Shown here piece after piece: positions 1 through 12,156 of a DNA stretch of 12,156 nucleotides. Position 1 is the first letter of the stretch; every line of letters starts with the position of its first letter. Under the pieces are notes generated by a model. The model saw nothing but the letters and a program-made list of their open reading frames with translations, did no database searches and was not told the origin of the DNA. Source of the DNA: a virus; UHGV virus genome UHGV-0071740. One strand, written 5' to 3'. Both the position numbers and the translations under genes were made by a program.

Positions 1-170
1 TTTGGTCATTAGAGGCGCCGCACCCCCTGTGTCTGGCCGCAGCACCACAGAGTGCACAGGCGCGCAGTGACACTGCGCTGGATCGTCTGATGCAGGGGGC
101 ACCGGCACCGCTGGCTGCAGGTAACCCGGCATCTGATGCCGTTAACGATTTGCTGAACACACCAGTGTAA
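1..170 (+). CDS. C: capsid assembly protease C / scaffold Nu3, C-terminal end (5' partial, runs off window start)
   Basis: Frame open from window start to TAA at 168-170; translated tail ...APAPLAAGNPASDAVNDLLNTPV; sits immediately upstream of D as in lambda. Identity rests on position and recollection of lambda, not a search. Confidence 0.7.
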   Translation, partial: WSLEAPHPLCLAAAPQSAQARSDTALDRLMQGAPAPLAAGNPASDAVNDLLNTPV

Positions 171-179
171 GGGATGTTT

Positions 180-512
180 ATGACGAGCAAAGAAACCTTT
201 ACCCATTACCAGCCGCTGGGCAACAGTGACCCGGCTTATACCGCAACCGCGCCCGGCGGATTGAGTGCGAAAGCGCCTGCAATGACCCCGCTGATGCTGG
301 ACACCTCCAGCCGTAAGCTGGTTGCGTGGGATGGCCCCACCGACGGTGCTGCCGTTGGCATTCTTGCGGTTGCTGCTGACCAGACCAGCACCACGCTGAC
401 GTTCTACAAGTCCGGCACGTTCCGTTATGAGGATGTGCTCTGGCCGGAGGCTGCCAGCGACGAGACGAAAAAACGGACCGCGTTTGCCGGAACGGCAATC
501 AGCATCGTTTAA
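180..512 (+). CDS. D: head decoration protein D (110 aa)
   Basis: ORF track 174..512; translation from ATG 180 ([12 protein letters not shown]...[11 protein letters not shown]) matches lambda gpD almost residue for residue as I recall it; the ATG at 174 only adds MF. Confidence 0.95.
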
Positions 513-530
513 CTTTACCCTTCATCACTA

Positions 531-554
531 AAGGCCGCCTGTGCGGCTTTTTTT
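531..554 (+). terminator. GC-rich hairpin plus T-tract between D and E (terminator-like)
   Basis: Stem GCCGC (534-538) / GCGGC (543-547) extendable to about 8 bp, 4-nt loop CTGT, followed by a T run 548-554. Confidence 0.45.
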
Positions 555-567
555 ACGGGATTTTTTT

Positions 568-812
568 ATGTCGATGTACACAACCGCCCAGCTGCTGGCG
601 GCAAATGAGCAGAAATTTAAGTTTGATCCGCTGTTTCTGTGTCTCTTTTTCCGTGAGAGCTATCCCTTCACCACGGAGAAAGTCTATCTCTCACAAATTC
701 CGGGACTGGTAAACATGGCGCTGTACGTTTCGCCGATTGTTTCCGGTGAGGTTATCCGTTCCCGTGGCGGCTCCACCTCTGAATTTACGCCGGGATATGT
801 CAAGCCGAAGCA
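568..812 (+). pseudogene. E: major capsid protein E, N-terminal fragment (codons 1-82), interrupted by insertion
   Basis: Translation from ATG 568 (MSMYTTAQLLAANEQKFKFDPLFL...GYVKPKH) matches the lambda gpE N-terminus; the frame then reads 9 foreign codons (LAWLSEAFV) to a stop at 841-843. The rest of E resumes at 7333. Confidence 0.95.
803..812. repeat. left copy of 10-bp direct repeat AGCCGAAGCA (attL core / target duplication)
   Basis: Identical 10-mer at 803-812 and 7333-7342, exactly at the two points where E coding sequence breaks and resumes. Confidence 0.8.
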
Positions 813-920
813 CTTAGCATGGCTTTCTGAGGCTTTCGTGTAGTTGCTGGTTTTTACACTTAATCTTTTGATAATAAAGAATAAGTTTATCTGGCGCTTT
901 CACTGGATTTTCCTCGTTAT

Positions 921-962
921 CTGTGTGTTGCAATCATCTCTGTATTGCAGCTTGTATTGCTT
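921..962. repeat. direct repeats of TGT(G)TTGCA-type motif (candidate integrase arm-type sites, left end)
   Basis: TGTGTGTTGCAA 923-934, TGTATTGCAG 941-950, TGTATTGC 953-960, the last two 12 bp apart; the same motif recurs at 7234-7256 near the other end. Confidence 0.55.
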
Positions 963-975
963 TTTGGGGCTAAAA

Positions 976-2211
976 ATGGCTGGCGAGAACAAACTGAGCG
1001 ACAAAGCACTTAAAGGATATCTGGGGAAACCCAGAGAAAAGCAGATCACCATTGCTGATGGAAAGGGGCTTTCTATTCGTGTGAGTACCAAGGGGGCTGT
1101 GAGCTTTGTTTTCTTCTACAGGTTAGCAGGTGGCCGGGCTGCTCCGGTCTGGCTAACGTTGGGTAAATATCCTGATATGTCACTCAAACAGGCAAGGGAA
1201 AAGCGCGACGAGTGCCGTGGTTGGTTGGCTGACAAACGTGATCCGCGTATCCAGATTAAGATTCAGGCTGAAGAACGCTTAAAGCCGGTCACAGTGGAGG
1301 ATGCACTAAATTACTGGTATGAAAATTACTGTAAGGTGCGTCGTAAAACTCATGCTGTAACGCTTGGCAGATTTCGAAAGCATATCTTTCCCTATATCGG
1401 TCATTTGCCCGTAAATGACACTCACCTATATGAATGGCTGGACTGTTTTGACCGAATTAAACGTAATGCACCAGTTATGGCGGCGTATGTTTTTTCTGAC
1501 ACTAAATTAGCTCTTCGTTTTTGTCGGGTACGCCAGTACGCGACGTGTGATGTTTTAAAGGATTTGCGCATGAGTGATGTGGGGCAGATTGCAGGTAAGC
1601 GGGATCGGGTTCTGGATGAAGCCGAACTGGGCCAGCTCTGGAAGGCAATTTTTGTCGAGCCTGATTTAAAACTAATGTCTGAATACACGCGAAAAATGTT
1701 TGTGCTTTGTACAGTATTTGGATGTCGAATGAGTGAAGCCCGATTATCTGAATGGAGCGAATGGGATCTCGAAAGTTGGGTTTGGACTGTACCAAAAGAT
1801 CACTCAAAAACTGGTGTTGAAATCGTCAGACCAGTACCTGAAATTCTACGACAGTGGGTAACGGATGTTCACGAAGAGACAAAACATACTGGTTATGTGC
1901 TGGGAAGTCTGCGAATTAGAGAAAGCGTAAGCAAGATTGGGGGGAAAATCGGTAAACGTTTGGGCCATGAAAAACAATGGTCACTACACGACCTTAGAAG
2001 AACGCTATCTACTCATCTAAGTGATCTCGGTGTTGAATTTTATGTAGTAGAACAACTGTTAGGCCATGCGCTACCTGGCGTGGCAGGTGTTTACAACCGG
2101 AGTAAGTTTATGGCTAAAAAACTGGATGCTCTGGAACTCTGGACTACATATCTCAATAGCATCGCAGGTGCTGATTCAAAAGTGACAATCCTCAAACAAA
2201 AGGCTGGTTAA
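976..2211 (+). CDS. int: tyrosine recombinase / phage integrase, P4-like with N-terminal arm-binding domain
   Basis: ORF track 844..2211; most plausible start is ATG 976 (MAGENKLSDKALKGYLGKP...). C-terminal catalytic signature HDLRRT...LLGHA...GVYNRS (conserved His/Arg and putative catalytic Tyr); sits next to the element boundary. Confidence 0.9.
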   Translation: MAGENKLSDKALKGYLGKPREKQITIADGKGLSIRVSTKGAVSFVFFYRLAGGRAAPVWLTLGKYPDMSLKQAREKRDECRGWLADKRDPRIQIKIQAEERLKPVTVEDALNYWYENYCKVRRKTHAVTLGRFRKHIFPYIGHLPVNDTHLYEWLDCFDRIKRNAPVMAAYVFSDTKLALRFCRVRQYATCDVLKDLRMSDVGQIAGKRDRVLDEAELGQLWKAIFVEPDLKLMSEYTRKMFVLCTVFGCRMSEARLSEWSEWDLESWVWTVPKDHSKTGVEIVRPVPEILRQWVTDVHEETKHTGYVLGSLRIRESVSKIGGKIGKRLGHEKQWSLHDLRRTLSTHLSDLGVEFYVVEQLLGHALPGVAGVYNRSKFMAKKLDALELWTTYLNSIAGADSKVTILKQKAG

Positions 2212-2212
2212 C

Positions 2213-2434
2213 ATGAAAAAAATGGCAATTGTTGATAAAAAGGGTCTGGAGTACATTCCTAACATCGATCGTATGATCCGTGAGAAAGAATGTCGGGAGC
2301 TAACCACTCTTGCAAACAGCACACGCTGGAAGCTGGAGAAGGAAGGAAAATTTCCTAAGCGGATCAAGATTGGTTCCACTGCTGTTGCATATCGTCTTTC
2401 AGAAGTGCAGGCATGGATTAGGGGAGAGTGGTAA
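2213..2434 (+). CDS. alpA: AlpA-family (CP4-57 type) DNA-binding regulator / excisionase-like protein
   Basis: 73-aa ORF starting 2 nt after the int stop; small basic protein with ...KRIKIGSTAVAYRLSEVQAWIRGEW, typical of AlpA/Vis-like winged-helix proteins that accompany satellite integrases. Confidence 0.75.
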   Translation: MKKMAIVDKKGLEYIPNIDRMIREKECRELTTLANSTRWKLEKEGKFPKRIKIGSTAVAYRLSEVQAWIRGEW

Positions 2435-3835
2435 GAATTTAGACAGTGGATGGAATCCTATGGGGGGAACCCATAGGGTTTTAAATAACATAAATTCAAA
2501 AACGTGCGTAGTTGATGAGATTATATAATTAGGTGGTAAGTATTGAACTATTTCTCCATCTTCTTCAAAAATATGAATAACTCTTGGGAATAATTCAGGG
2601 CGTATAGGATTTAATGCCTTCGGATTATGAAACATGTATATTGCTGTACACCATGGTTCTTGATATGAAGGTGCATTGACAAGAGCAGTAAAAGGCATTG
2701 GGGTACAGCCTTCATCAGTTTTAATACCTCTAACGATGGATTTGACATTTTTTTGTTCAATCCCTGCCACTACTCCCATTCTATCAAATTTTGGGATGGT
2801 GGCATGTGTCGCAAGTAATATGGCTGAGACATTCTCATTTTTATTAGAGCCGAAAAAATTAGATGGTATACTTCGATTTTCAAATAAATGTTGTTCAATT
2901 TTACTTCCAGAATCCATATCTACACCATACAGATAGCTTTGTAGTGCTGGCATTGATATACTCATCGAAAGTCTGTGTGAGTAATCGTGTAAAGCAATAA
3001 TGAAAGGCTTTCCTTTTGTATGATCTAGTTCCCAATAGCATAATTTTAAGGGTTCAGGTTTATGCCTAACTTTCTTTAATAGAGTGCGGGCAAATTTGAA
3101 TGGCATTTGTTCTTTTACATATCTCTGAAGATCTTCTACTGCCTCATGATCAAGTATCAATTTCTCGGTAGGTTCCTCTTGTTCTGCAACTGTGGCAGCT
3201 TCTACAGCAATATCAATGCCATTTTTTGAGATAATATAATCAGGTTGAGCATAATCTCTGCATATTACGAAATCCATTTCGTAGAAAACTGCGTTTAGAT
3301 AAAGTTCGAATAAGCGAGAGTTAAATGAAGCACTCTGGAAATCTCTGATGAATATTCCATCAGGATCTTTACACCAATAAGCTAACTCTTGCATAACAAT
3401 AAATGCAGGATAGTGTTTGGGTTCCTCAAGTAGCATTCTTAGATAAACGTTTTTTTTATGTTCTGGAACTTTGGCTAGGAATATTGAAAATGCCGACTCT
3501 GATTCGTCACCCTGTATAAAACAACCGTTCTTGTGTAGTGATAATAGCTCTGGTATGGCTTTTTCCATATCAGTAATTAAATCATCTTTAGATTCACGGG
3601 ATACAATTACTTTAATCGCTCTAAATTTTTTATCTAAATCCCTACCTAGAAATATAGCGTTGTAATCATTATCTATTTTACAAAAAACAATTGTTGCTAA
3701 GATTGTGACATCATCCTTTATAAATTTGAACCAACAGATTTCCTCCGAAAAGGTTTTTACGTATGGTGTACGACCATAGAAAAATACATCAAATTGTTCT
3801 TTACTGATTTCTAGCATTTTGTGACTTGTTGTCAT
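2399..3835 (-). CDS. hypothetical 478-aa protein, AT-rich, no family assignable by eye (candidate defence/effector cargo)
   Basis: Long uninterrupted minus-strand ORF; start ATG at 3835 preceded by AAGGA Shine-Dalgarno; lies 23 nt downstream of the RHH gene on the same strand; strongly AT-rich relative to its surroundings. Confidence 0.7.
   Translation of the reverse strand: MTTSHKMLEISKEQFDVFFYGRTPYVKTFSEEICWFKFIKDDVTILATIVFCKIDNDYNAIFLGRDLDKKFRAIKVIVSRESKDDLITDMEKAIPELLSLHKNGCFIQGDESESAFSIFLAKVPEHKKNVYLRMLLEEPKHYPAFIVMQELAYWCKDPDGIFIRDFQSASFNSRLFELYLNAVFYEMDFVICRDYAQPDYIISKNGIDIAVEAATVAEQEEPTEKLILDHEAVEDLQRYVKEQMPFKFARTLLKKVRHKPEPLKLCYWELDHTKGKPFIIALHDYSHRLSMSISMPALQSYLYGVDMDSGSKIEQHLFENRSIPSNFFGSNKNENVSAILLATHATIPKFDRMGVVAGIEQKNVKSIVRGIKTDEGCTPMPFTALVNAPSYQEPWCTAIYMFHNPKALNPIRPELFPRVIHIFEEDGEIVQYLPPNYIISSTTHVFEFMLFKTLWVPPIGFHPLSKFLPLSPNPCLHF
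2456..2482 (+). terminator. rho-independent terminator-like hairpin after alpA
   Basis: TCCTATGGG (2456-2464) / CCCATAGGG (2470-2478), 5-nt loop GGGAA, then TTTT 2479-2482; begins 22 nt after the alpA stop. Confidence 0.55.
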
Positions 3836-3858
3836 AGAAGAATCCTTTATGCAAATTA

Positions 3859-4053
3859 TCAGCCTTTAGGTGTTATTCCTTGTTTTATTAGTTCGGCACG
3901 AGCCAGTTCTTTTAGCCAGTTACCTAAGCTCATCCCTTCTTTGGCAGCGACATTAACCATTTGTTCTTTTAATTCTGGGTTAATACGGACTTGGAATGCT
4001 GGTGCTTTACCTGCACCTTTCGGTTGTTTATCACGTTGAATGATAGTTGACAT
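3859..4053 (-). CDS. Arc/CopG-like ribbon-helix-helix DNA-binding protein (putative regulator or antitoxin)
   Basis: 64-aa ORF; segment PAFQVRINPELKEQMVNVAAKEGMSLGNWLKELARAEL fits the beta-strand then helix pattern of Arc/MetJ-type RHH proteins; first gene of the operon with the 478-aa ORF. Confidence 0.6.
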   Translation of the reverse strand: MSTIIQRDKQPKGAGKAPAFQVRINPELKEQMVNVAAKEGMSLGNWLKELARAELIKQGITPKG

Positions 4054-4095
4054 GTGTGTACCTATTGCTTAGTATGATTCTTGATAGGTACACAC
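4054..4095. promoter_or_regulatory. perfect 12-bp inverted repeat GTGTGTACCTAT-N18-ATAGGTACACAC (operator-like)
   Basis: Arms at 4054-4065 and 4084-4095; lies between the predicted -10 and the RHH start codon (4051-4053). Confidence 0.6.
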
Positions 4096-4113
4096 CTTAT
4101 CATGTTTTATTGC

Positions 4114-4142
4114 TATATAACAACGCCCTGCAGTGCTCGCAA
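4114..4142 (-). promoter_or_regulatory. predicted sigma70 promoter for the RHH/478-aa operon
   Basis: On the minus strand: -35 TTGCGA (4142-4137), 17-bp spacer, -10 TATATA (4119-4114); would start transcription about 50 nt upstream of the RHH ATG. Confidence 0.5.
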
Positions 4143-4156
4143 CACATACAGGGCGT
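4123..4156. promoter_or_regulatory. second inverted repeat ACGCCCTG-N18-CAGGGCGT overlapping the predicted -35
   Basis: Perfect 8-bp arms at 4123-4130 and 4149-4156, with the same 18-nt spacer length as the 12-bp palindrome. Confidence 0.4.
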
Positions 4157-4390
4157 CTAACCACCAACGATAGCAACAGTATCGAGGTAGCTATGAGAAA
4201 TCATACCACACACCCGCAAGGGCGGGATTCGCACAACCTGAATAAATACATCTGGCGTTTTATCGCCCTGAGCACCGCACAACCACGCGTAATACACATC
4301 GAGGCCGCCAGCGAACAGGAAGCCCGCCAGCAATCCCCAACTGGCTACGTGATGATATTCGCCGCCCGTATTCGTCAGGAGGTGTGCCAT
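4157..4390 (-). CDS. possible small hydrophobic protein (77 aa); coding status uncertain
   Basis: ORF track; GC-rich block with frequent G at codon position 1 and common E. coli codons in this frame; hydrophobic stretch WGLLAGFLFAGGLDVYYAWLCGA. But its start codon overlaps the start and Shine-Dalgarno of the divergent + gene, which is awkward. Confidence 0.3.
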   Translation of the reverse strand: MAHLLTNTGGEYHHVASWGLLAGFLFAGGLDVYYAWLCGAQGDKTPDVFIQVVRIPPLRVCGMISHSYLDTVAIVGG

Positions 4391-4613
4391 GAATGATCTT
4401 TATTTTAAAGTGCTGACACATGCTGAAAACGCGCTCGTTTGTGGCAAAAATATGCGAGAAATCTTATCAACCTGGCTTGATGGGACAACAAATGCAGAAC
4501 ACGATGAACGGGATGCTAATTTAGCTGGAGCGTTAATTACGTTACTTGATCCTGTCATCAAAGAGCTGGATGAAGCTATAAAAATACACGACCAGAGCTA
4601 TACCGGAGAATAA
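4389..4613 (+). CDS. hypothetical protein (74 aa), first gene of the primase operon
   Basis: ATG 4389 preceded by AGGAGG 4377-4382; followed 3 nt later by the next ORF. Confidence 0.55.
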   Translation: MNDLYFKVLTHAENALVCGKNMREILSTWLDGTTNAEHDERDANLAGALITLLDPVIKELDEAIKIHDQSYTGE

Positions 4614-4616
4614 AAA

Positions 4617-4904
4617 ATGAAAAATAAATTTTCTGGCTTTATTGCCAGCGGTCAAACTCATTCAAAAATCAGCCTTGGGGATATTTTCAAAGACAGCTAT
4701 GGCTATCGGGTAAAGATTATTTCGGTTGATGATCGTCGTGTCTCTTATTTGCGTGATGGTTATGATTTTGAATGTGTTATGCCGCGTCAGCAGTTCGAAA
4801 GAGATTTCATTCTGGTAAAAAATTGCAAGACAGATAATCAGAGGCGTGCCGCAGGCTATATCCGTAAAATTCGGGCAATGTTAGTTGCCGGAGGTAACAA
4901 ATGA
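4617..4904 (+). CDS. hypothetical protein (95 aa), translationally coupled to primase
   Basis: ATG 4617 preceded by GGAGA; its stop overlaps the primase start (ATGA at 4901-4904). Confidence 0.55.
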   Translation: MKNKFSGFIASGQTHSKISLGDIFKDSYGYRVKIISVDDRRVSYLRDGYDFECVMPRQQFERDFILVKNCKTDNQRRAAGYIRKIRAMLVAGGNK

Positions 4905-6667
4905 AACGTGCTCCGAACTTAAAATACCAACCGCGCGACAAAATGACGGAAGTCATCATTTTTGCTGGCAGTGATGCCTGGAGCCATGCAAAAGAATGGA
5001 ATGAATGGGCAGGTAAGCATATTGCAGCAGATGATACACCACCAGTCATTCTGGGTACGGAACAACTGGAAAACCTGGATGATATGCAAATTATCGATGA
5101 AGGCCGTCATTATGTGCGTGTTTATCGTGCCGGAAAGATTGCAGAGAAAAGTCTGACGAAGGTTGCGACATTACTTGCTATTGCAGGCGTAAAGGAAGCA
5201 CGTTGTTACCGTAGCTTTGTTGATCGAGAGCCTGAAGACTGGACTCCGCGCCTTGTCGGCCTAAAAGCTGAAGCGGAGCATGGGGAAAGTCTGGTGATTG
5301 AACTGCCAGTGAAGAAGGCTGAGCGCAAAAATGACGAGCGTGCTTCATCTTTGGCGTTGAATCAGATGGGGGCCAGCCAGCGCGGTGAAGTTCTCCTTGC
5401 ACATTACGGCGGCGAACTGGCAATCAATGCCGACTCTGACACCGTTCATCATTACAACGGCGTTGTATGGGAGCCGGTTCAGGATAAAGAGTTACAGCGT
5501 GCTATGGCGCAGATTTTCATTGATGCGGAGATCAGCTATTCGCAGAACGCTATTAAATCGGCGGTAGATACCATGAAGTTAAGTTTGCCTGTAATGGGGA
5601 ATACAGCCCGTAACCTGATTGGATTCAGTAACGGGGTATTTGATACCAGAACTGGTAATTTTCGGGAGCATAACAAAAACGACTGGTTGTTAATTGCCAG
5701 TGAATTACCTTTCAGCCCACCAGCAGAGGGGGAAACGCTGGCAACACATGCGCCGAATTTCTGGAAGTGGTTGCGCCGTTCGGTGGCTGAGAATGACCGC
5801 AAGGCAGATCGCGTACTGGCGGCATTATTCATGGTGCTGGCGAACCGGTACGACTGGCAGTTATTCATTGAGGTAACAGGGCCGGGGGGAAGTGGTAAAA
5901 GTGTGATGGCGGAGATTTGCACCATGCTGGCGGGTAAGGCTAATACAGTATCAGCAAGCATGAAGGCGCTGGAAGATGCAAGGGAACGTGCGTTAGTGGT
6001 TGGCTTTTCGCTGATTATCATGCCGGATATGACCCGCTACGCTGGTGATGGGGCAGGGATTAAGGCCATTACAGGCGGTGACAAGGTGGCAATTGACCCG
6101 AAACACAAAGCCCCCTATTCAACGCGTATTCCGGCAGTAGTGCTGGCGGTTAACAATAACGCCATGTCATTCAGTGACCGCAGCGGGGGGATCTCACGTC
6201 GTCGGGTGATATTCAATTTTTCGGAAGTTGTACCGGAGAACGAACGCGATTCGATGCTGGCGGAAAAAATAGAAGGTGAGCTGGCGGTAGTGATTCGTCA
6301 TCTGCTTACAAGGTTTGCTGATCAGGACGAAGCCAGACGCCTGTTATATGAGCAGCAGAAATCTGAAGAAGCACTGGCGATAAAGCGAGAGGGGGATTCG
6401 CTGGTGGACTTCTGCGGTTATCTCATGGCATCGGTAATGTGTGATGGCCTGTTAGTGGGTAATGCTGAAATTGTGCCATTCAGCCCACGCAGGTATCTCT
6501 ATCATGCCTATCTTGATGAGCTGTTCGTTCCATGTGCATCACCGAGTTTATTACGAAGAGTACCTAACCCATTTACAACTGCAGAACAACCGCCGAGAAT
6601 TTGTTTGAAGATATTTTCAGTATGTTGGTCGGCAGATAGGTTAAGTTCTTTTGAAAGAGTTTTATAA
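4901..6667 (+). CDS. P4-family primase/helicase-like replication protein (D5_N-like region, SF3-type P-loop), C-terminus apparently truncated or chimeric
   Basis: 588-aa ORF; Walker A GPGGSGKS encoded near 5880-5900; hydrophobic-D Walker B-like LIIMPD; overall pattern of phage/plasmid primase P4-family C-terminal domain; the last ~50 codons are antisense to the HEPN gene and look like read-through. Confidence 0.8.
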   Translation: MKRAPNLKYQPRDKMTEVIIFAGSDAWSHAKEWNEWAGKHIAADDTPPVILGTEQLENLDDMQIIDEGRHYVRVYRAGKIAEKSLTKVATLLAIAGVKEARCYRSFVDREPEDWTPRLVGLKAEAEHGESLVIELPVKKAERKNDERASSLALNQMGASQRGEVLLAHYGGELAINADSDTVHHYNGVVWEPVQDKELQRAMAQIFIDAEISYSQNAIKSAVDTMKLSLPVMGNTARNLIGFSNGVFDTRTGNFREHNKNDWLLIASELPFSPPAEGETLATHAPNFWKWLRRSVAENDRKADRVLAALFMVLANRYDWQLFIEVTGPGGSGKSVMAEICTMLAGKANTVSASMKALEDARERALVVGFSLIIMPDMTRYAGDGAGIKAITGGDKVAIDPKHKAPYSTRIPAVVLAVNNNAMSFSDRSGGISRRRVIFNFSEVVPENERDSMLAEKIEGELAVVIRHLLTRFADQDEARRLLYEQQKSEEALAIKREGDSLVDFCGYLMASVMCDGLLVGNAEIVPFSPRRYLYHAYLDELFVPCASPSLLRRVPNPFTTAEQPPRICLKIFSVCWSADRLSSFERVL

Positions 6668-7173
6668 AGCTCTGACATTTCAATATTTTTATTATTATAC
6701 TGAATGCCCATATCATCAAGAATGTGTTTGCAAACTGTTTCAAGAAGTGTTCTTGCGGAGGTTATCGCACCATCCGGATCTGTATGGCGCCGTTCAAGTG
6801 CTTTTATCCAAACGGCGTGGACTCCATCCTCGTTAAACTTTCTTAATACATCAGATATGTCTTCATCCGCTGGAGCTTTATTTTTCCCTTCTAGATAGTC
6901 CAGCATCGGCTGAAATGCCTTATAAATCAAATCTCTCCGGGGGGCATACTTTTCAGTCTTTTTTATAAATCCCCAAAATTCTTTTAGTGAGCGATTAGTT
7001 CTCACAAACTCTGGTAATAGCTGATGTAAAGGAGGATTTTGTAAGAAATATGTTCTTAGAAGCAAATAATCATTATTAGCTTCATCCTGGGCTCCTGTAG
7101 CTCTTGCAATTAGTATGTTTTGAAGCGCTACTGCGCGCTCTAGGTCATTTTGAAGGGTATCTATAATATTCAT
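6508..7173 (-). CDS. HEPN-type abortive-infection-like protein (Abi_C-like), 221 aa
   Basis: Minus-strand ORF, AT-rich; C-terminal GLGTLRNKLGDAHG contains an R-x6-H motif of the HEPN/Abi_C type; only 7 residues follow the motif His, so the protein may be C-terminally shortened. Confidence 0.55.
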   Translation of the reverse strand: MNIIDTLQNDLERAVALQNILIARATGAQDEANNDYLLLRTYFLQNPPLHQLLPEFVRTNRSLKEFWGFIKKTEKYAPRRDLIYKAFQPMLDYLEGKNKAPADEDISDVLRKFNEDGVHAVWIKALERRHTDPDGAITSARTLLETVCKHILDDMGIQYNNKNIEMSELYKTLSKELNLSADQHTENIFKQILGGCSAVVNGLGTLRNKLGDAHGTNSSSR

Positions 7174-7233
7174 AACAAATCTTTATTCACTTCATTTGTG
7201 GGTTGATAATTGAATGGTTTGTACATTGATTTC

Positions 7234-7256
7234 TGTGTATTGCAGTGTGTATTGCA
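7234..7256. repeat. tandem direct repeat TGTGTATTGCA x2 (candidate integrase arm-type sites, right end)
   Basis: Copies at 7234-7244 and 7246-7256 (12-bp register), about 80-100 bp inside the right junction; same motif and orientation as the left-end copies. Confidence 0.55.
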
Positions 7257-7332
7257 ACATAGCCATTCAGGTAGAGATTATGCTCTATTTTTCCTCTTAT
7301 ATCATTCACATACTTACACCATTGACTCATGT

Positions 7333-7342
7333 AGCCGAAGCA
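7333..7342. repeat. right copy of 10-bp direct repeat AGCCGAAGCA (attR core)
   Basis: Identical to 803-812; lambda-like E sequence resumes from here. Confidence 0.8.
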
Positions 7343-8123
7343 TGAAGTGAATCCGCAGATGACCCTGCGTCGCCTGCCGGATGAAGATCCGCAGAATCTG
7401 GCGGACCCGGCTTACCGCCGCCGTCGCATCATCATGCAGAACATGCGTGACGAAGAGCTGGCCATTGCTCAGGTCGAAGAGATGCAGGCAGTTTCTGCCG
7501 TGCTTAAGGGCAAATACACCATGACCGGTGAAGCCTTCGATCCGGTTGAGGTGGATATGGGCCGCAGTGAGGAGAATAACATCACGCAGTCCGGCGGCAC
7601 GGAGTGGAGCAAGCGTGACAAGTCCACGTATGACCCGACCGACGATATCGAAGCCTACGCGCTGAACGCCAGCGGTGTGGTGAATATCATCGTGTTCGAT
7701 CCGAAAGGCTGGGCGCTGTTCCGTTCCTTCAAAGCCGTCAAGGAGAAGCTGGATACCCGTCGTGGCTCTAATTCCGAGCTGGAGACAGCGGTGAAAGACC
7801 TGGGCAAAGCGGTGTCCTATAAGGGGATGTATGGCGATGTGGCCATCGTCGTGTATTCCGGACAGTACGTGGAAAACGGCGTCAAAAAGAACTTCCTGCC
7901 GGACAACACGATGGTGCTGGGGAACACTCAGGCACGCGGTCTGCGCACCTATGGCTGCATTCAGGATGCGGACGCACAGCGCGAAGGCATTAACGCCTCT
8001 GCCCGTTACCCGAAAAACTGGGTGACCACCGGCGATCCGGCGCGTGAGTTCACCATGATTCAGTCAGCACCGCTGATGCTGCTGGCTGACCCTGATGAGT
8101 TCGTGTCCGTACAACTGGCGTAA
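7333..8123 (+). pseudogene. E: major capsid protein E, C-terminal fragment (codon ~80 to end), no start codon of its own
   Basis: Frame open from 7335, with an in-frame TAG at 7332-7334 just upstream; translation ...KPKHEVNPQMTLRRLPDEDPQN...DEFVSVQLA matches the remainder of lambda gpE. Confidence 0.95.
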
Positions 8124-9518: not shown

Positions 9519-9910
9519 AACATACTGAACTCCGTGCAGCCGTACTGGATGCACTGGAGAAGCATGACACCGGGGCGACGTTTTTTGATGGTCGCCCCGC
9601 TGTTTTTGATGAGGCGGATTTTCCGGCAGTTGCCGTTTATCTCACCGGCGCTGAATACACGGGCGAAGAGCTGGACAGCGATACCTGGCAGGCGGAGCTG
9701 CATATCGAAGTTTTCCTGCCTGCTCAGGTGCCGGATTCAGAGCTGGATGCGTGGATGGAGTCCCGGATTTATCCGGTGATGAGCGATATCCCGGCACTGT
9801 CAGATTTGATCACCAGTATGGTGACCAGCGGCTATGACTACCGGCGCGACGATGATGCGGGCCTGTGGAGGTCAGCCGCTCTTACTTATGTCATTACCTA
9901 TGAAATGTGA
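9515..9910 (+). CDS. U: tail terminator protein U
   Basis: Start overlaps the Z stop (ATGA); translation [31 protein letters not shown]... matches lambda gpU. Confidence 0.9.
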
Positions 9911-11096: not shown

Positions 11097-11512
11097 GTTT
11101 TGCCCTGAAACTGGCGCGCGAGATGGGGCGACCCGACTGGCGTGCCATGCTTGCCGGGATGTCATCCACGGAGTATGCCGACTGGCACCGCTTTTACAGT
11201 ACCCATTATTTTCATGATGTTCTGCTGGATATGCACTTTTCCGGGCTGACGTACACCGTGCTCAGCCTGTTTTTCAGCGATCCGGATATGCATCCGCTGG
11301 ATTTCAGTCTGCTGAACCGGCGCGAGGCTGACGAAGAGCCTGAAGATGATGTGCTGATGCAGAAAGCGGCAGGGCTTGCCGGAGGCGTTCGTTTTGGCCC
11401 GGACGGGAATGAAGTTATCCCCGCTTCCCCGGATGTGGCGGACATGACGGAGGATGACGTAATGCTGATGACAGTATCAGAAGGGATCGCAGGAGGAGTC
11501 CGGTATGGCTGA
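11078..11512 (+). CDS. T: tail assembly protein T, expressed only as a G-T fusion via the -1 frameshift
   Basis: -1 frame ORF with no convincing own start; translation ...FDGELSFALKLAREMGRPDWRAMLAGMSSTEYADWHRFYSTHYFHDV... matches lambda gpT. Confidence 0.85.
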   Translation: MFDGELSFALKLAREMGRPDWRAMLAGMSSTEYADWHRFYSTHYFHDVLLDMHFSGLTYTVLSLFFSDPDMHPLDFSLLNRREADEEPEDDVLMQKAAGLAGGVRFGPDGNEVIPASPDVADMTEDDVMLMTVSEGIAGGVRYG

Positions 11513-12156
11513 ACCGGTAGGCGATCTGGTCGTTGATTTAAGTCTGGATGCGGCCAGATTTGACGAGCAGATGGCCAGAGTCAGGCGTCATTTTTCCGGT
11601 ACGGAAAGTGATGCGAAAAAAACAGCGGCAGTCGTTGAACAGTCGCTGAGCCGACAGGCGCTGGCTGCACAGAAAGCGGGGATTTCCGTCGGGCAGTATA
11701 AAGCCGCCATGCGTATGCTGCCTGCACAGTTCACCGACGTGGCCACGCAGCTTGCAGGCGGGCAAAGTCCGTGGCTGATCCTGCTGCAACAGGGGGGTCA
11801 GGTTAAGGACTCCTTCGGCGGGATGATCCCCATGTTCAGGGGGCTTGCCGGCCACCTCGCTGGCGGTGGCGACCGGTGCGCTGGCGTATGCCTGGTATCA
11901 GGGCAACTCAACCCTGTCCGATTTCAACAAAACGCTGGTCCTTTCCGGCAATCAGGCGGGACTGACGGCAGATCGTATTCTGGCCCTGTCCAGAGCCGGG
12001 CAGGCGGCAGGGCTGACGTTTAACCAGACCAGCGAGTCACTCAGCGCACTGGTTAAGGCGGGGGTAAGCGGTGAGGCTCAGATTGCGTCCATCAGCCAGA
12101 GTGTGGCGCGTTTCTCCTCTGCATCCGGCGCGGCGGGGGACAAGGTCGCTGAAGCC
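11505..12156 (+). pseudogene. H: tail tape measure protein H, 5' part, frame-disrupted near 11850 (3' partial, runs off window end)
   Basis: ATG 11505 (MAEPVGDLVVDLSLDAARFDEQ...) matches the lambda gpH N-terminus, but this frame ends at 12023 after a Gly/Arg-rich nonsense tail, while the +1 frame is open from 11827 to the window end and reads ATSLAVATGALAYAWYQGNSTLSDFNKTLVLSGNQAGLTADR... Confidence 0.7.

Follow-up and report, generated by a model that had tools for sequence, protein, structure and literature searches.

The helper-embedded PICI family (HE-PICI) and its insertion site E:Phage_cap_E:80 have been published, with 11capE of E. coli NRG857c as the type element (Tommasini, Mageeney & Williams 2023, PMC10111431). 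Elements of this site group lie co-oriented within the cognate of lambda gene E, at about codon 80, and all of those catalogued at E:Phage_cap_E:80 (201/201) are 10-18 kb in size (PMC10111431). A doubled TGTATTGC motif characterises the family; more specifically, two co-oriented doubled tgTGTATTGCantgTGTATTGCa arm motifs are found ~81 bp upstream and ~132 bp downstream of the attP centre (PMC10111431). HE-PICIs and Gram-negative PICIs share a layout of four ordered zones, namely Integration, Bro/immunity, Replication and Late, and HE-PICIs are replicated passively within the composite with their helper (PMC10111431). Excision of 11capE with restoration of gene E was measured (PMC10111431). In Gram-negative PICIs the origin directly follows the rep gene on its 3' side (Fillol-Salom et al. 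2018, 2019). Another group of small satellites, the PICMIs of Vibrionaceae, is found next to fis, exploits virulent helpers, needs a working primase and is packaged as concatemers (Barcia-Cruz et al. 2024, PMC10803314).

Here we describe a small element in a stretch of viral DNA of 12,156 nucleotides (UHGV virus genome UHGV-0071740; this whole stretch is referred to as the window). The most informative fact about the element, absent from the initial annotation, is its place inside the capsid gene of a lambda-like helper prophage. It occupies 813-7342 on the + strand (6,530 bp), as delimited by core repeats and by the restoration of gene E; the initial annotation had set it at 976-6667, bounds that give way to those marked by the repeat AGCCGAAGCA. 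The gene that received the insertion is the lambda-type major capsid gene E of the prophage, split at codons 79-82, and the features of the insertion site are as follows.

568-812, + strand: 5' fragment of the helper prophage major capsid gene E, codons 1-82 (annotated as a partial 'major capsid protein' in relatives)
803-812, + strand: attL core AGCCGAAGCA, a 10-bp direct repeat with 7333-7342
937-960, + strand: doubled arm motif TCTCTGTATTGCAGCTTGTATTGC, downstream arm of attP (repeat family D3; identical in the NRG857c type element)
7232-7255, + strand: doubled arm motif TCTGTGTATTGCAGTGTGTATTGC, upstream arm of attP (repeat family D3; in register with the type element)
7333-7342, + strand: attR core AGCCGAAGCA, direct repeat with 803-812
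7343-8123, + strand: 3' fragment of helper capsid gene E, codons 83-341 (joins to 568-812)

When 568-812 and 7343-8123 are joined, a 1,026-nt ORF results that encodes an intact lambda-type gpE of 341 aa. Gene E is disrupted without any replacement sequence, and int, alpA and the replicase are co-oriented with helper genes D, E and FI-H. The attL/attR repeat AGCCGAAGCA is the published identity block agccgaagca of site E:Phage_cap_E:80, and the arm motif at 937-960 agrees with the published HE-PICI-specific motif. The upstream motif ends 82.5 bp from the core centre (published 81 +/- 2 bp) and the downstream motif starts 129.5 bp from it (published ~132 bp), an offset that depends on the reference point of measurement. 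From attL through int and alpA, the DNA matches NRG857c 11capE at 99.4% identity with 100% coverage, an identity that puts the integrase with the 11capE clade, and full-length relatives at the same E site are ~11 kb long. The element is thus very probably a member of the HE-PICI family, site group E:Phage_cap_E:80, of which this copy represents a decayed deletion derivative. A plasmid or ICE backbone, which the initial annotation had named as the finding that would speak against a satellite, was considered and rejected.

The gene content agrees in outline with what had been proposed from the sequence at first reading: int and alpA are present, as are the pair of small ORFs and the replicase resembling P4 alpha. 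The features within the element are:

976-2211, + strand: tyrosine integrase, 411 aa, intact (Pfam Arm-DNA-bind_3 and Phage_integrase)
2213-2434, + strand: AlpA-family excisionase/regulator, 73 aa, intact (PF05930 at 2.7e-15; 37% identity to P4 Vis)
2399-3835, - strand: PD-T7-1 anti-phage defence gene in cargo hotspot 1, 478 aa (PADLOC PD-T7-1 9.1e-154, profile positions 1-448/452)
3859-4053, - strand: 64-aa ribbon-helix-helix (HicB/Arc-like) protein (weak HicB and Arc-like repressor matches)
4133-4396, + strand: Icd-like small protein, called as 67-87 aa (NCBIfam phage_ICD_like 1.1e-19; phrog_6196)
4389-4613, + strand: 74-aa backbone ORF (phrog_2196 at 3.9e-35)
4617-4904, + strand: 95-aa backbone ORF, DUF4222 (PF13973 at 3.4e-22)
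4901-6513, + strand: truncated replicase, codons 1-538/606, with D5_N and DUF5906 helicase (domain matches; homology to relatives ends at 6513)
6508-7173, - strand: truncated Abi_C/AbiJ-like gene in cargo hotspot 2, 220/253 codons kept (PADLOC AbiJ 8.3e-17; phrog_23253 positions 1-220/253)
6513/6514, no strand: deletion junction with 1-nt microhomology (T), from a three-way alignment
6514-6667, + strand: end of the fused ORF, out of context and reading the Abi gene in antisense (aligns to the Abi region of L003 and L008, no replicase)

The exact integrase protein also occurs in the full-length elements L007-L016, and the alpA interval 2213-2434 shows 0 differences from the parent element described below. 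Three distant integrase-related loci, in Kosakonia, Cedecea and Kluyvera, have no nucleotide similarity to the window and were left out of the comparison. PD-T7-1 is 478 aa long in the window versus 449 aa in all other copies, its native stop (~2486-2488) having been lost via clustered substitutions, although the window sequence is a metagenome contig at 4x coverage and differences private to it are unreliable. The 64-aa ribbon-helix-helix gene lies upstream of PD-T7-1, divergent from the replication operon, and is kept in relatives with different cargo. A sigma-70-like site at 4047-4075 is the only positionally plausible candidate promoter upstream of the Icd-like gene, such sites occurring at chance density; in the scan as a whole, neither promoter nor terminator hits were denser than chance. 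A search of the whole window against Rfam at E<=1 returned no immunity RNA of C4/isrK type and no other credible match.

The initial annotation had placed the two small ORFs where P4 carries epsilon and orf151. The likeness is one of position only, since in sequence neither ORF is homologous to epsilon, orf151 or orf106 of P4 (best E 0.18). The 74-aa ORF occupies the equivalent place in L001, L002 and the type element, where all three are annotated WP_000999172.1. Likewise, the gene called primase-like does carry D5_N/DUF5906 and resembles P4 alpha over residues 323-712, but it gave no primase-domain match and its homology to relatives stops at codon 538/606. Identity to P4 alpha is 51% and is confined to those residues, which cover the helicase and some of the origin-binding domain. 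Residues 1-322 of P4 alpha, its primase domain, find no match, and the origin-binding domain is cut in the window. In the full-length replicase this domain is recognised at residues 498-594 (PDB 1KA8 of P4 alpha, E 1.9e-24).

These likenesses to P4, namely an alpha-like helicase and origin-binding module in the replicase, a Vis-like AlpA and an Icd-like ORF, speak for a decayed P4-type satellite. Such an origin is nevertheless so improbable that it can be set aside. Identity between the integrase and P4 Int is only 25%, and no P2-type cos is present. The earlier claim that sid, psu and delta are absent held up: the P4 proteins Sid, Psu, Delta and Epsilon, compared with the window by tblastn, gave nothing better than E ~1, and across blastp and tblastn no match to them fell below E ~0.1. 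Homologues of all four are missing from the full-length relatives as well. There, lambda-type E- and D-like genes stand instead of sid, psu and delta, which refutes the P4-type reading; backbone, att site and late zone (with its lambda-type capsid and decoration genes) are those of an HE-PICI.

Comparison with full-length elements showed how the HE-PICI copy in the window came to be so small. Up to 6513, the left arm of the window is 99.2-99.8% identical to full-length elements, and from 6513 on the right arm is 99-100% identical to them. Relative to the full-length parent, L008 (GCA_044129235.1), 4,724 bp are missing, with the window arms meeting L008 at 15538 and 20263; in the deleted form, represented by L012 (GCA_014515425.1) and by metagenome copies, 6 substitutions separate the left 15.5 kb from this parent, and none the right 974 bp. 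What was lost extends from replicase codon 539 to codon 221 of the convergent Abi gene, leaving Abi without its last 33 codons (Abi_C profile coverage 2-57/83 in the window versus 2-82/83 in the full-length gene). The last 50 codons of the fused 'primase' ORF at 4901-6667 are not replicase but the antisense strand of Abi. Judged from the aligned sequences, the deletion is one illegitimate-recombination event with 1-nt microhomology. An assembly artefact was rejected, the junction recurring in independent assemblies.

The deleted segment encodes SSB, a Phage_cap_E capsid protein, an HDPD head-decoration protein, AlpA-like and Nu1-like proteins, an 81-aa ORF and a 91-aa ORF, and it contains the cos site. 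Also lost are most of the origin-binding winged-helix domain of the replicase and the iteron origin, with 9-10 GGTGAACAG iterons just 3' of the replicase gene in relatives versus 0 in the window. The window copy thus has no initiator with an adjacent iteron origin, that is, no PICI replicon of its own, and the four-zone PICI layout has lost its Late zone and part of its Replication zone. Nor does it retain a PICI packaging determinant (cos/pac, terS or rpp). As the initial annotation had noted, small terminase and cos-like sequence are both missing: profile searches of the element found no terminase, capsid or Nu1 family, and blastn (word 7, E<=0.01) against helper and satellite cos regions found no cos-like segment in the window, where cosN-like 12-mers occur at chance level only. 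A cos-like segment is present in the full-length relatives. Searches of PDB sequences with the Nu1-like 180-aa and AlpA-like 127-aa late proteins of the full-length relative L010 gave no Rpp match.

The minimal gene set therefore exists because of one 4,724-bp deletion. The initial annotation had offered decay of a satellite as its alternative, and it is this alternative that the truncation of two genes and the near-identical full-length parent bear out; on the sequence evidence, the element is an ordinary case of decay in a known family and does not represent a minimalist kind of its own.

The likeness to minimalist islands that had first been put forward rests on the gene list. The PICMI core of int, alpA and primase (DUF3987 or DUF5906) is matched by Pfam here, satisfying an int + alpA + prim (DUF5906) search model, capsid-remodelling genes are missing, and at ~6.5 kb the element comes near PICMI115 (6.1 kb), the group being of ~6 kb; moreover, the variant occurs in at least 11 samples. 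A functional PICMI-like satellite might then manage with int, alpA and the DUF5906 replicase, being packaged as concatemers in helper capsids via an unrecognised site. We regard this as very unlikely. The two genes that meet at the junction are both cut short and fused antisense, there is an 11-kb parent that is almost identical, and origin iterons, most of the origin-binding domain and cos are gone; the flanks are lambda gene E fragments in an E. coli prophage, not fis in a member of the Vibrionaceae; and the copies are near-identical, all within the same prophage, as expected of a clone. Whereas PICMIs need their primase, the minimal set here stems from a recent deletion that cut the replicase and removed its origin. 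From the gene content and the backbone, the resemblance to PICMIs appears superficial, at the level of the gene list, and the backbone is that of an E. coli helper-embedded PICI, with no separate minimalist lineage.

The spread of the decayed HE-PICI copy was followed by means of its junction. The 588-aa ORF specific to the deletion was found in 25 index blocks from at least 11 samples, all 99.84-100% identical, and the same junction at such identity in so many samples implies a single event. The exact integrase is present in 148 index blocks, 25/148 of which carry the deletion variant. All of these near-identical copies lie in one and the same prophage, which suggests that the variant spread clonally, not horizontally. 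The junction was found in 0/5,426 complete E. coli genomes, and exact searches for it gave nothing in GTDB species representatives, JGI metagenome contigs or IMG/VR; the predicted attP junction of an excised circle was likewise not found in metagenome contigs or IMG/VR. In the E. coli census the late module was present in 299 genomes versus 175-179 for this int-alpA, but the module is common to other PICIs, so that late-zone and int-alpA counts cannot be linked per element.

These population data also bear on whether the deleted form is under selection, for instance by being kept for its cargo, as the initial annotation had supposed it might be. A disarmed satellite could benefit helper or host through the loss of its interference and packaging genes, persisting as an excisable carrier of PD-T7-1 that is passively replicated in cis and places gene E under int/alpA control. 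The perfectly conserved integration module, the PD-T7-1 gene that is intact in other copies, the share of the variant among blocks with the exact integrase and the passive replication of HE-PICIs within their composite are all compatible with this. However, with 6 substitutions in 16.5 kb separating it from its parent, the deletion is so young that conservation says nothing about selection and the retention of PD-T7-1 needs none; Abi, the second defence gene, was itself damaged by the deletion; and all copies are clonal, with the junction absent from the complete E. coli genomes. We therefore think selection of this sort improbable. A kindred view, 'taming' rather than plain decay, in which genes costly to the helper were lost and a non-parasitic, excisable insert gates the capsid gene and supplies defence, strikes us as doubtful. 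On this view, the competing capsid, Nu1-like gene, cos and replicon are the costly parts that went, and a perfect int/alpA/att module and PD-T7-1 are what was kept. If it were true, the recurrence in at least 11 independent samples would be a result of selection acting on helper and host as a pair. More generally, a variant found in many samples might be favoured by selection or retain some mobility, instead of persisting neutrally within a single successful clone.

For the decayed HE-PICI copy, the following behaviour may be proposed. Upon helper induction, late transcription coming through D and the E fragment would continue into int and alpA. Excision of the element would then restore gene E, as measured for 11capE. 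From its intact integration module the element is probably still excisable. The excised 6.5-kb circle would not replicate, having no origin and a crippled replicase, and would not be packaged, having no cos. It would no longer interfere with the helper or spread horizontally, and would persist by vertical inheritance within the prophage only. The truncated replicase, with its helicase core kept, might act on another origin in trans, and PD-T7-1 together with the small ribbon-helix-helix gene probably still gives the host anti-phage defence.

The underlying biology of HE-PICIs was already described in 2023, and the main value of this element is a caution: a profile of int, alpA and DUF5906 would mislabel a crippled copy of an 11-kb HE-PICI as a minimalist satellite. 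It is also the first element below 10 kb in a site group of which all catalogued members are larger, a size comparison that rests on the published catalogue and exact-protein look-ups. In addition, L008 and the deleted form (L012 and the metagenome copies) make up a natural near-isogenic pair, which may be used to study what the HE-PICI replication and late zones add to the spread of the satellite and to its interference with the helper, and whether excision by itself rescues the helper capsid gene.

Among known systems, the int-alpA integration module of this element is found also in EcCICFT073, the model Gram-negative PICI (Fillol-Salom et al. 2018, 2019). The full-length relatives are like EcCICFT073 in further respects: an iteron origin next to the replicase, capsid and head-decoration homologues encoded by the satellite itself, cos packaging by lambdoid helpers and a size of ~11 kb. 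EcCICFT073 differs in its chromosomal site, outside its helper, and the window copy has lost all the features that replication and packaging of the EcCICFT073 type require. The closest likeness is to 11capE and the E:Phage_cap_E:80 group. Although at 6.5 kb the window element is without the replicase end, origin, SSB, Late zone and cos of a group whose catalogued members measure 10-18 kb, it has in common with 11capE the lambda-type E site, the 10-bp identity block, the doubled TGTATTGC arm motifs at equal spacing, the near-identical int-alpA, a backbone of Icd-like gene, 74-aa ORF, DUF4222 and replicase, the orientation with the helper late genes and the placing of defence cargo at the same two hotspots.

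By its gene calls, the window covers late genes of a lambda-like prophage, with gpD, a split major capsid gene E and then FI, FII, Z, U, V, G, T and the start of H, and it contains no tRNA gene. An ENA metagenome contig (ERZ1742012 NODE_1002, coverage 4.16) is identical to it. G+C content, about 57% in the phage genes, falls to 33-50% from roughly 800 to 7300; the left flank terminates in ...GTCAAGCCGAAGCA and the right flank restarts at AGCCGAAGCATGAAGTG. The features to which we refer are as follows.

Features of the window, with coordinates and strand where assigned
174-512: gpD, upstream of the split E
803-812 and 7333-7342: 10-bp direct repeat AGCCGAAGCA, the att cores
937-960 and 7232-7255: doubled motif tgTGTATTGCantgTGTATTGCa
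976-2211: tyrosine integrase, 411 aa
2213-2434: AlpA, 73 aa
Minus strand: PD-T7-1 defence gene, PADLOC model matched over its full length (E 9e-154)
64-aa RHH/HicB-like gene
Icd-like ORF
74-aa ORF, phrog_2196, function unknown
95-aa ORF, DUF4222
588-aa ORF, D5_N and DUF5906 domains
6508-7173, minus strand: Abi_C/AbiJ-like gene

Joining 568-812 to 7343-8123 yields a 1,026-nt ORF encoding an intact 341-aa lambda-type gpE. The core repeats and this restorable gene therefore delimit the element as 813-7342 (6,530 bp), inserted at codons 79-82 of the helper capsid gene, with int, alpA and the replicase gene in the orientation of the helper late operon. When relatives are compared with the window (loci L001, L003 and L028), the 10-bp attL and attR cores of a single element differ at wobble positions, for example AACCCAAGCA and AGCCGAAGCA. 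Because these positions vary, the obligatory crossover segment, read from the sequences, is probably only the shared AAGCA, which published tables of helper-embedded PICIs (HE-PICIs) also list for some elements. The initial annotation had described int, alpA, two small ORFs and a P4-family primase-like gene, all of which are recovered by domain and phrog profile matches, and had seen no sid, psu or delta and no cos sequence. Indeed, P4 Sid, Psu and Delta found nothing in a six-frame search of the window, the cos region of the helper, as found in a relative, had no match there at E<=0.01, and cosN-like 12-mers occur at chance frequency. This account of gene content and absences holds; its element limits and its assumption of an intact replicase ORF do not. 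The PD-T7-1, RHH/HicB-like, Icd-like and Abi_C/AbiJ-like genes also lie within the element and were missing from that list.

The element is a degenerate member of a family already described, the HE-PICIs of Tommasini, Mageeney and Williams 2023 (PMC10111431), 201 of which were mapped at the site E:Phage_cap_E:80. Their type element, 11capE of E. coli NRG857c, occupies this site in gene E with a 10-bp identity block, and its excision was measured at about 2 h after mitomycin C, following replication of the helper-satellite composite (PMC10111431). Relative to the attP centre, the family-specific doubled motif is placed 81 ± 2 bp upstream and 132 ± 2 bp downstream (PMC10111431); the two copies in the window match these distances, and the arms that bear them align in register with NRG857c. 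Across attL-int-alpA the two DNAs are 99.4% identical, and among 5,426 complete E. coli genomes 175-179 carry the int-alpA module. A backbone of the Icd-like ORF, the 74-aa ORF, DUF4222 and a 606-aa replicase is common to the type element and other relatives. Relatives continue 3' of the replicase with an 81-aa ORF, SSB, a Phage_cap_E capsid gene, a head-decoration gene, an AlpA-like 127-aa gene and a cos-like segment, beyond which lie a Nu1-like gene or its remnant, the second cargo slot and attR.

Much of this right half has been lost from the window in a single deletion. Positions 32-6513 are 99.2-99.8% identical to full-length elements, and from 6513 onwards the sequence has 99-100% identity with the right end of elements with the same Abi cargo; a three-way alignment places the junction at 6513, on a single shared T. 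Four full-length elements (L008, L010, L013 and L016) carry the exact cargo pair of the window, PD-T7-1 and a 253-aa Abi_C gene. Between the full-length parent, L008 (GCA_044129235.1), and the deleted form there are 6 substitutions over 15.5 kb to the left of the junction and none over 974 bp to its right; relative to L008, 4,724 bp are missing. The deletion breaks the replicase at codon 538 of 606 and the Abi gene at codon 220 of 253, such that the final 50 codons of the 588-aa 'primase' ORF are antisense Abi sequence, and the Abi_C domain is covered over 2-57 of 83 positions in the window versus 2-82 in the parent.

The deletion removes features linked to both replication and packaging. In the full-length replicase, residues 498-594 match the origin-binding domain of P4 alpha, whose crystal structure is 1KA8 (E 1.9e-24), and 41 of these 97 residues are left in the window. 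In relatives, a 288-bp spacer 3' of the replicase holds 9-10 GGTGAACAG iterons in both orientations flanking an AT-rich stretch, a position and layout established by experiment as the origin of E. coli PICIs; the window has none of these iterons. Also absent is the satellite cos-like segment, which in three BLAST comparisons shows 83-93% identity with the cos region of the helper. Its cosN 12-mer is GGGCGTCAGGCG versus GGGCGGCGACCT in the helper, with helper flanking sequence kept (L001 21234-21439; L002 ~21341-21556; L003 11492-11563), and this difference in sequence may be relevant to the way in which packaging distinguishes satellite DNA from helper DNA. Within the window, the deleted segment with the satellite cos has its sole match in the paralogous part of gene E, and no other remnant of it occurs there beyond this 75% paralogy of the satellite and helper capsid genes.

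To assess the spread of the deleted form, we used an exact-protein look-up. The deletion-specific 588-aa ORF occurs in 25 index blocks, and the exact integrase in 148; 24 contigs were read, from ENA, Logan, JGI and NCBI samples, representing at least 11 samples and including GCA_014515425.1. An assembly artefact was rejected, since the same junction recurs in copies from at least 11 samples. The deleted copies are 99.84-100% identical among themselves and share the same helper, one having a diverged tail region. An independent minimalist family was likewise rejected, since all copies are near-identical, sit in the same helper and derive from the 11-kb parent; the deleted form is one deletion event in one lineage. 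The published catalogue lists sizes at this site of 10 kb (n=5), 11 kb (n=188), 12 kb (n=5), 14 kb (n=2) and 18 kb (n=1), with no element below 10 kb, and the junction occurs in none of the complete E. coli genomes. In one deleted variant (L019, ERZ28571311; 14982-17643 and 1000-2990) the helper H/tail region is only 91% identical and the portal/protease region is disrupted, which points either to mosaicism of the helper or to chimerism of the metagenome scaffold.

The window copy also carries differences of its own. Eight clustered substitutions at 2453-2501, just downstream of alpA, destroy the native PD-T7-1 stop, the predicted protein having 478 aa in the window and 449 aa in other copies. 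They also change a hairpin located between alpA and PD-T7-1, two genes that converge. Smaller clusters specific to the window are present at 9871/9879 and 12131-12137. Within gene H (11505-12023), 26 bp (TGCGATCACCCTGCCGATGGTGGGGG) present in every other copy (L011, L012, L018 and others) are missing at 11840-11860, which frameshifts the tape-measure gene after about residue 115 and, if real, would leave the helper prophage tail-defective. As these changes are absent from all other copies and the contig coverage is 4x, they are probably assembly errors.

Integrase, AlpA, both core repeats and both arm motifs are all intact, and within the element the window differs from L008 only at position 2212, in the 2453-2501 cluster beside the PD-T7-1 stop and by a substitution at 2976. 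By analogy with the 11capE experiments and model, helper late transcription would run into the element, and Int and AlpA would excise it, restoring gene E. Given the losses, the excised circle would be unable to start replication or to be recognised by terminase, and hence would be neither amplified nor transduced. The capsid, decoration and Nu1-like proteins, through which an intact satellite might compete with its helper, are no longer encoded. PD-T7-1, a single-gene anti-T7 system found in an E. coli functional screen, is together with its upstream RHH gene the sole cargo still intact in the lineage; conservation is uninformative on whether the element is retained for this cargo, because the deletion is too recent. 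Cargo in both slots is of defence type and differs between copies. Across loci L001-L003, L007-L016 and L028, the slot next to alpA is occupied by PD-T7-1, by a TIR-domain protein or by DUF2971 and then a SWIM zinc-finger protein, and the one preceding attR by Abi_C, GmrSD-like DUF262 with HEPN, a restriction endonuclease or DUF2971. A further relative, L014 (GCA_049388085.1, 16000-21236), has an identical integrase and the same left half as the window element; beyond SSB it carries PerC, an HK97-type capsid (PF05065), an S78 protease, a portal, head-completion and connector proteins and an HNH gene, a late zone whose gene content resembles that of a capsid-forming PICI. Upstream, the helper protease and D region are apparently missing from this locus.

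Direct comparison of P4 proteins with those of the element gave 51% identity between the replicase and P4 alpha, confined to alpha residues 323-712, 37% between AlpA and Vis and 25% between the integrase and Int. The 74-aa and 95-aa ORFs showed no significant similarity to P4 epsilon, orf151 or orf106. PICMIs, to which the element might also be compared, are defined by int, alpA, a working primase and an adjoining fis in Vibrionaceae (PMC10803314); they replicate, and virulent helpers package them as concatemers (PMC10803314). On its gene list the window element would be accepted by this model, but it departs from the model in integration site and in replicase integrity. The minimalist likeness favoured in the initial annotation is thus superficial, and its alternative of a decayed satellite is the one upheld: on sequence comparison, the element is demonstrably derived from an 11-kb PICI by the 4,724-bp deletion.
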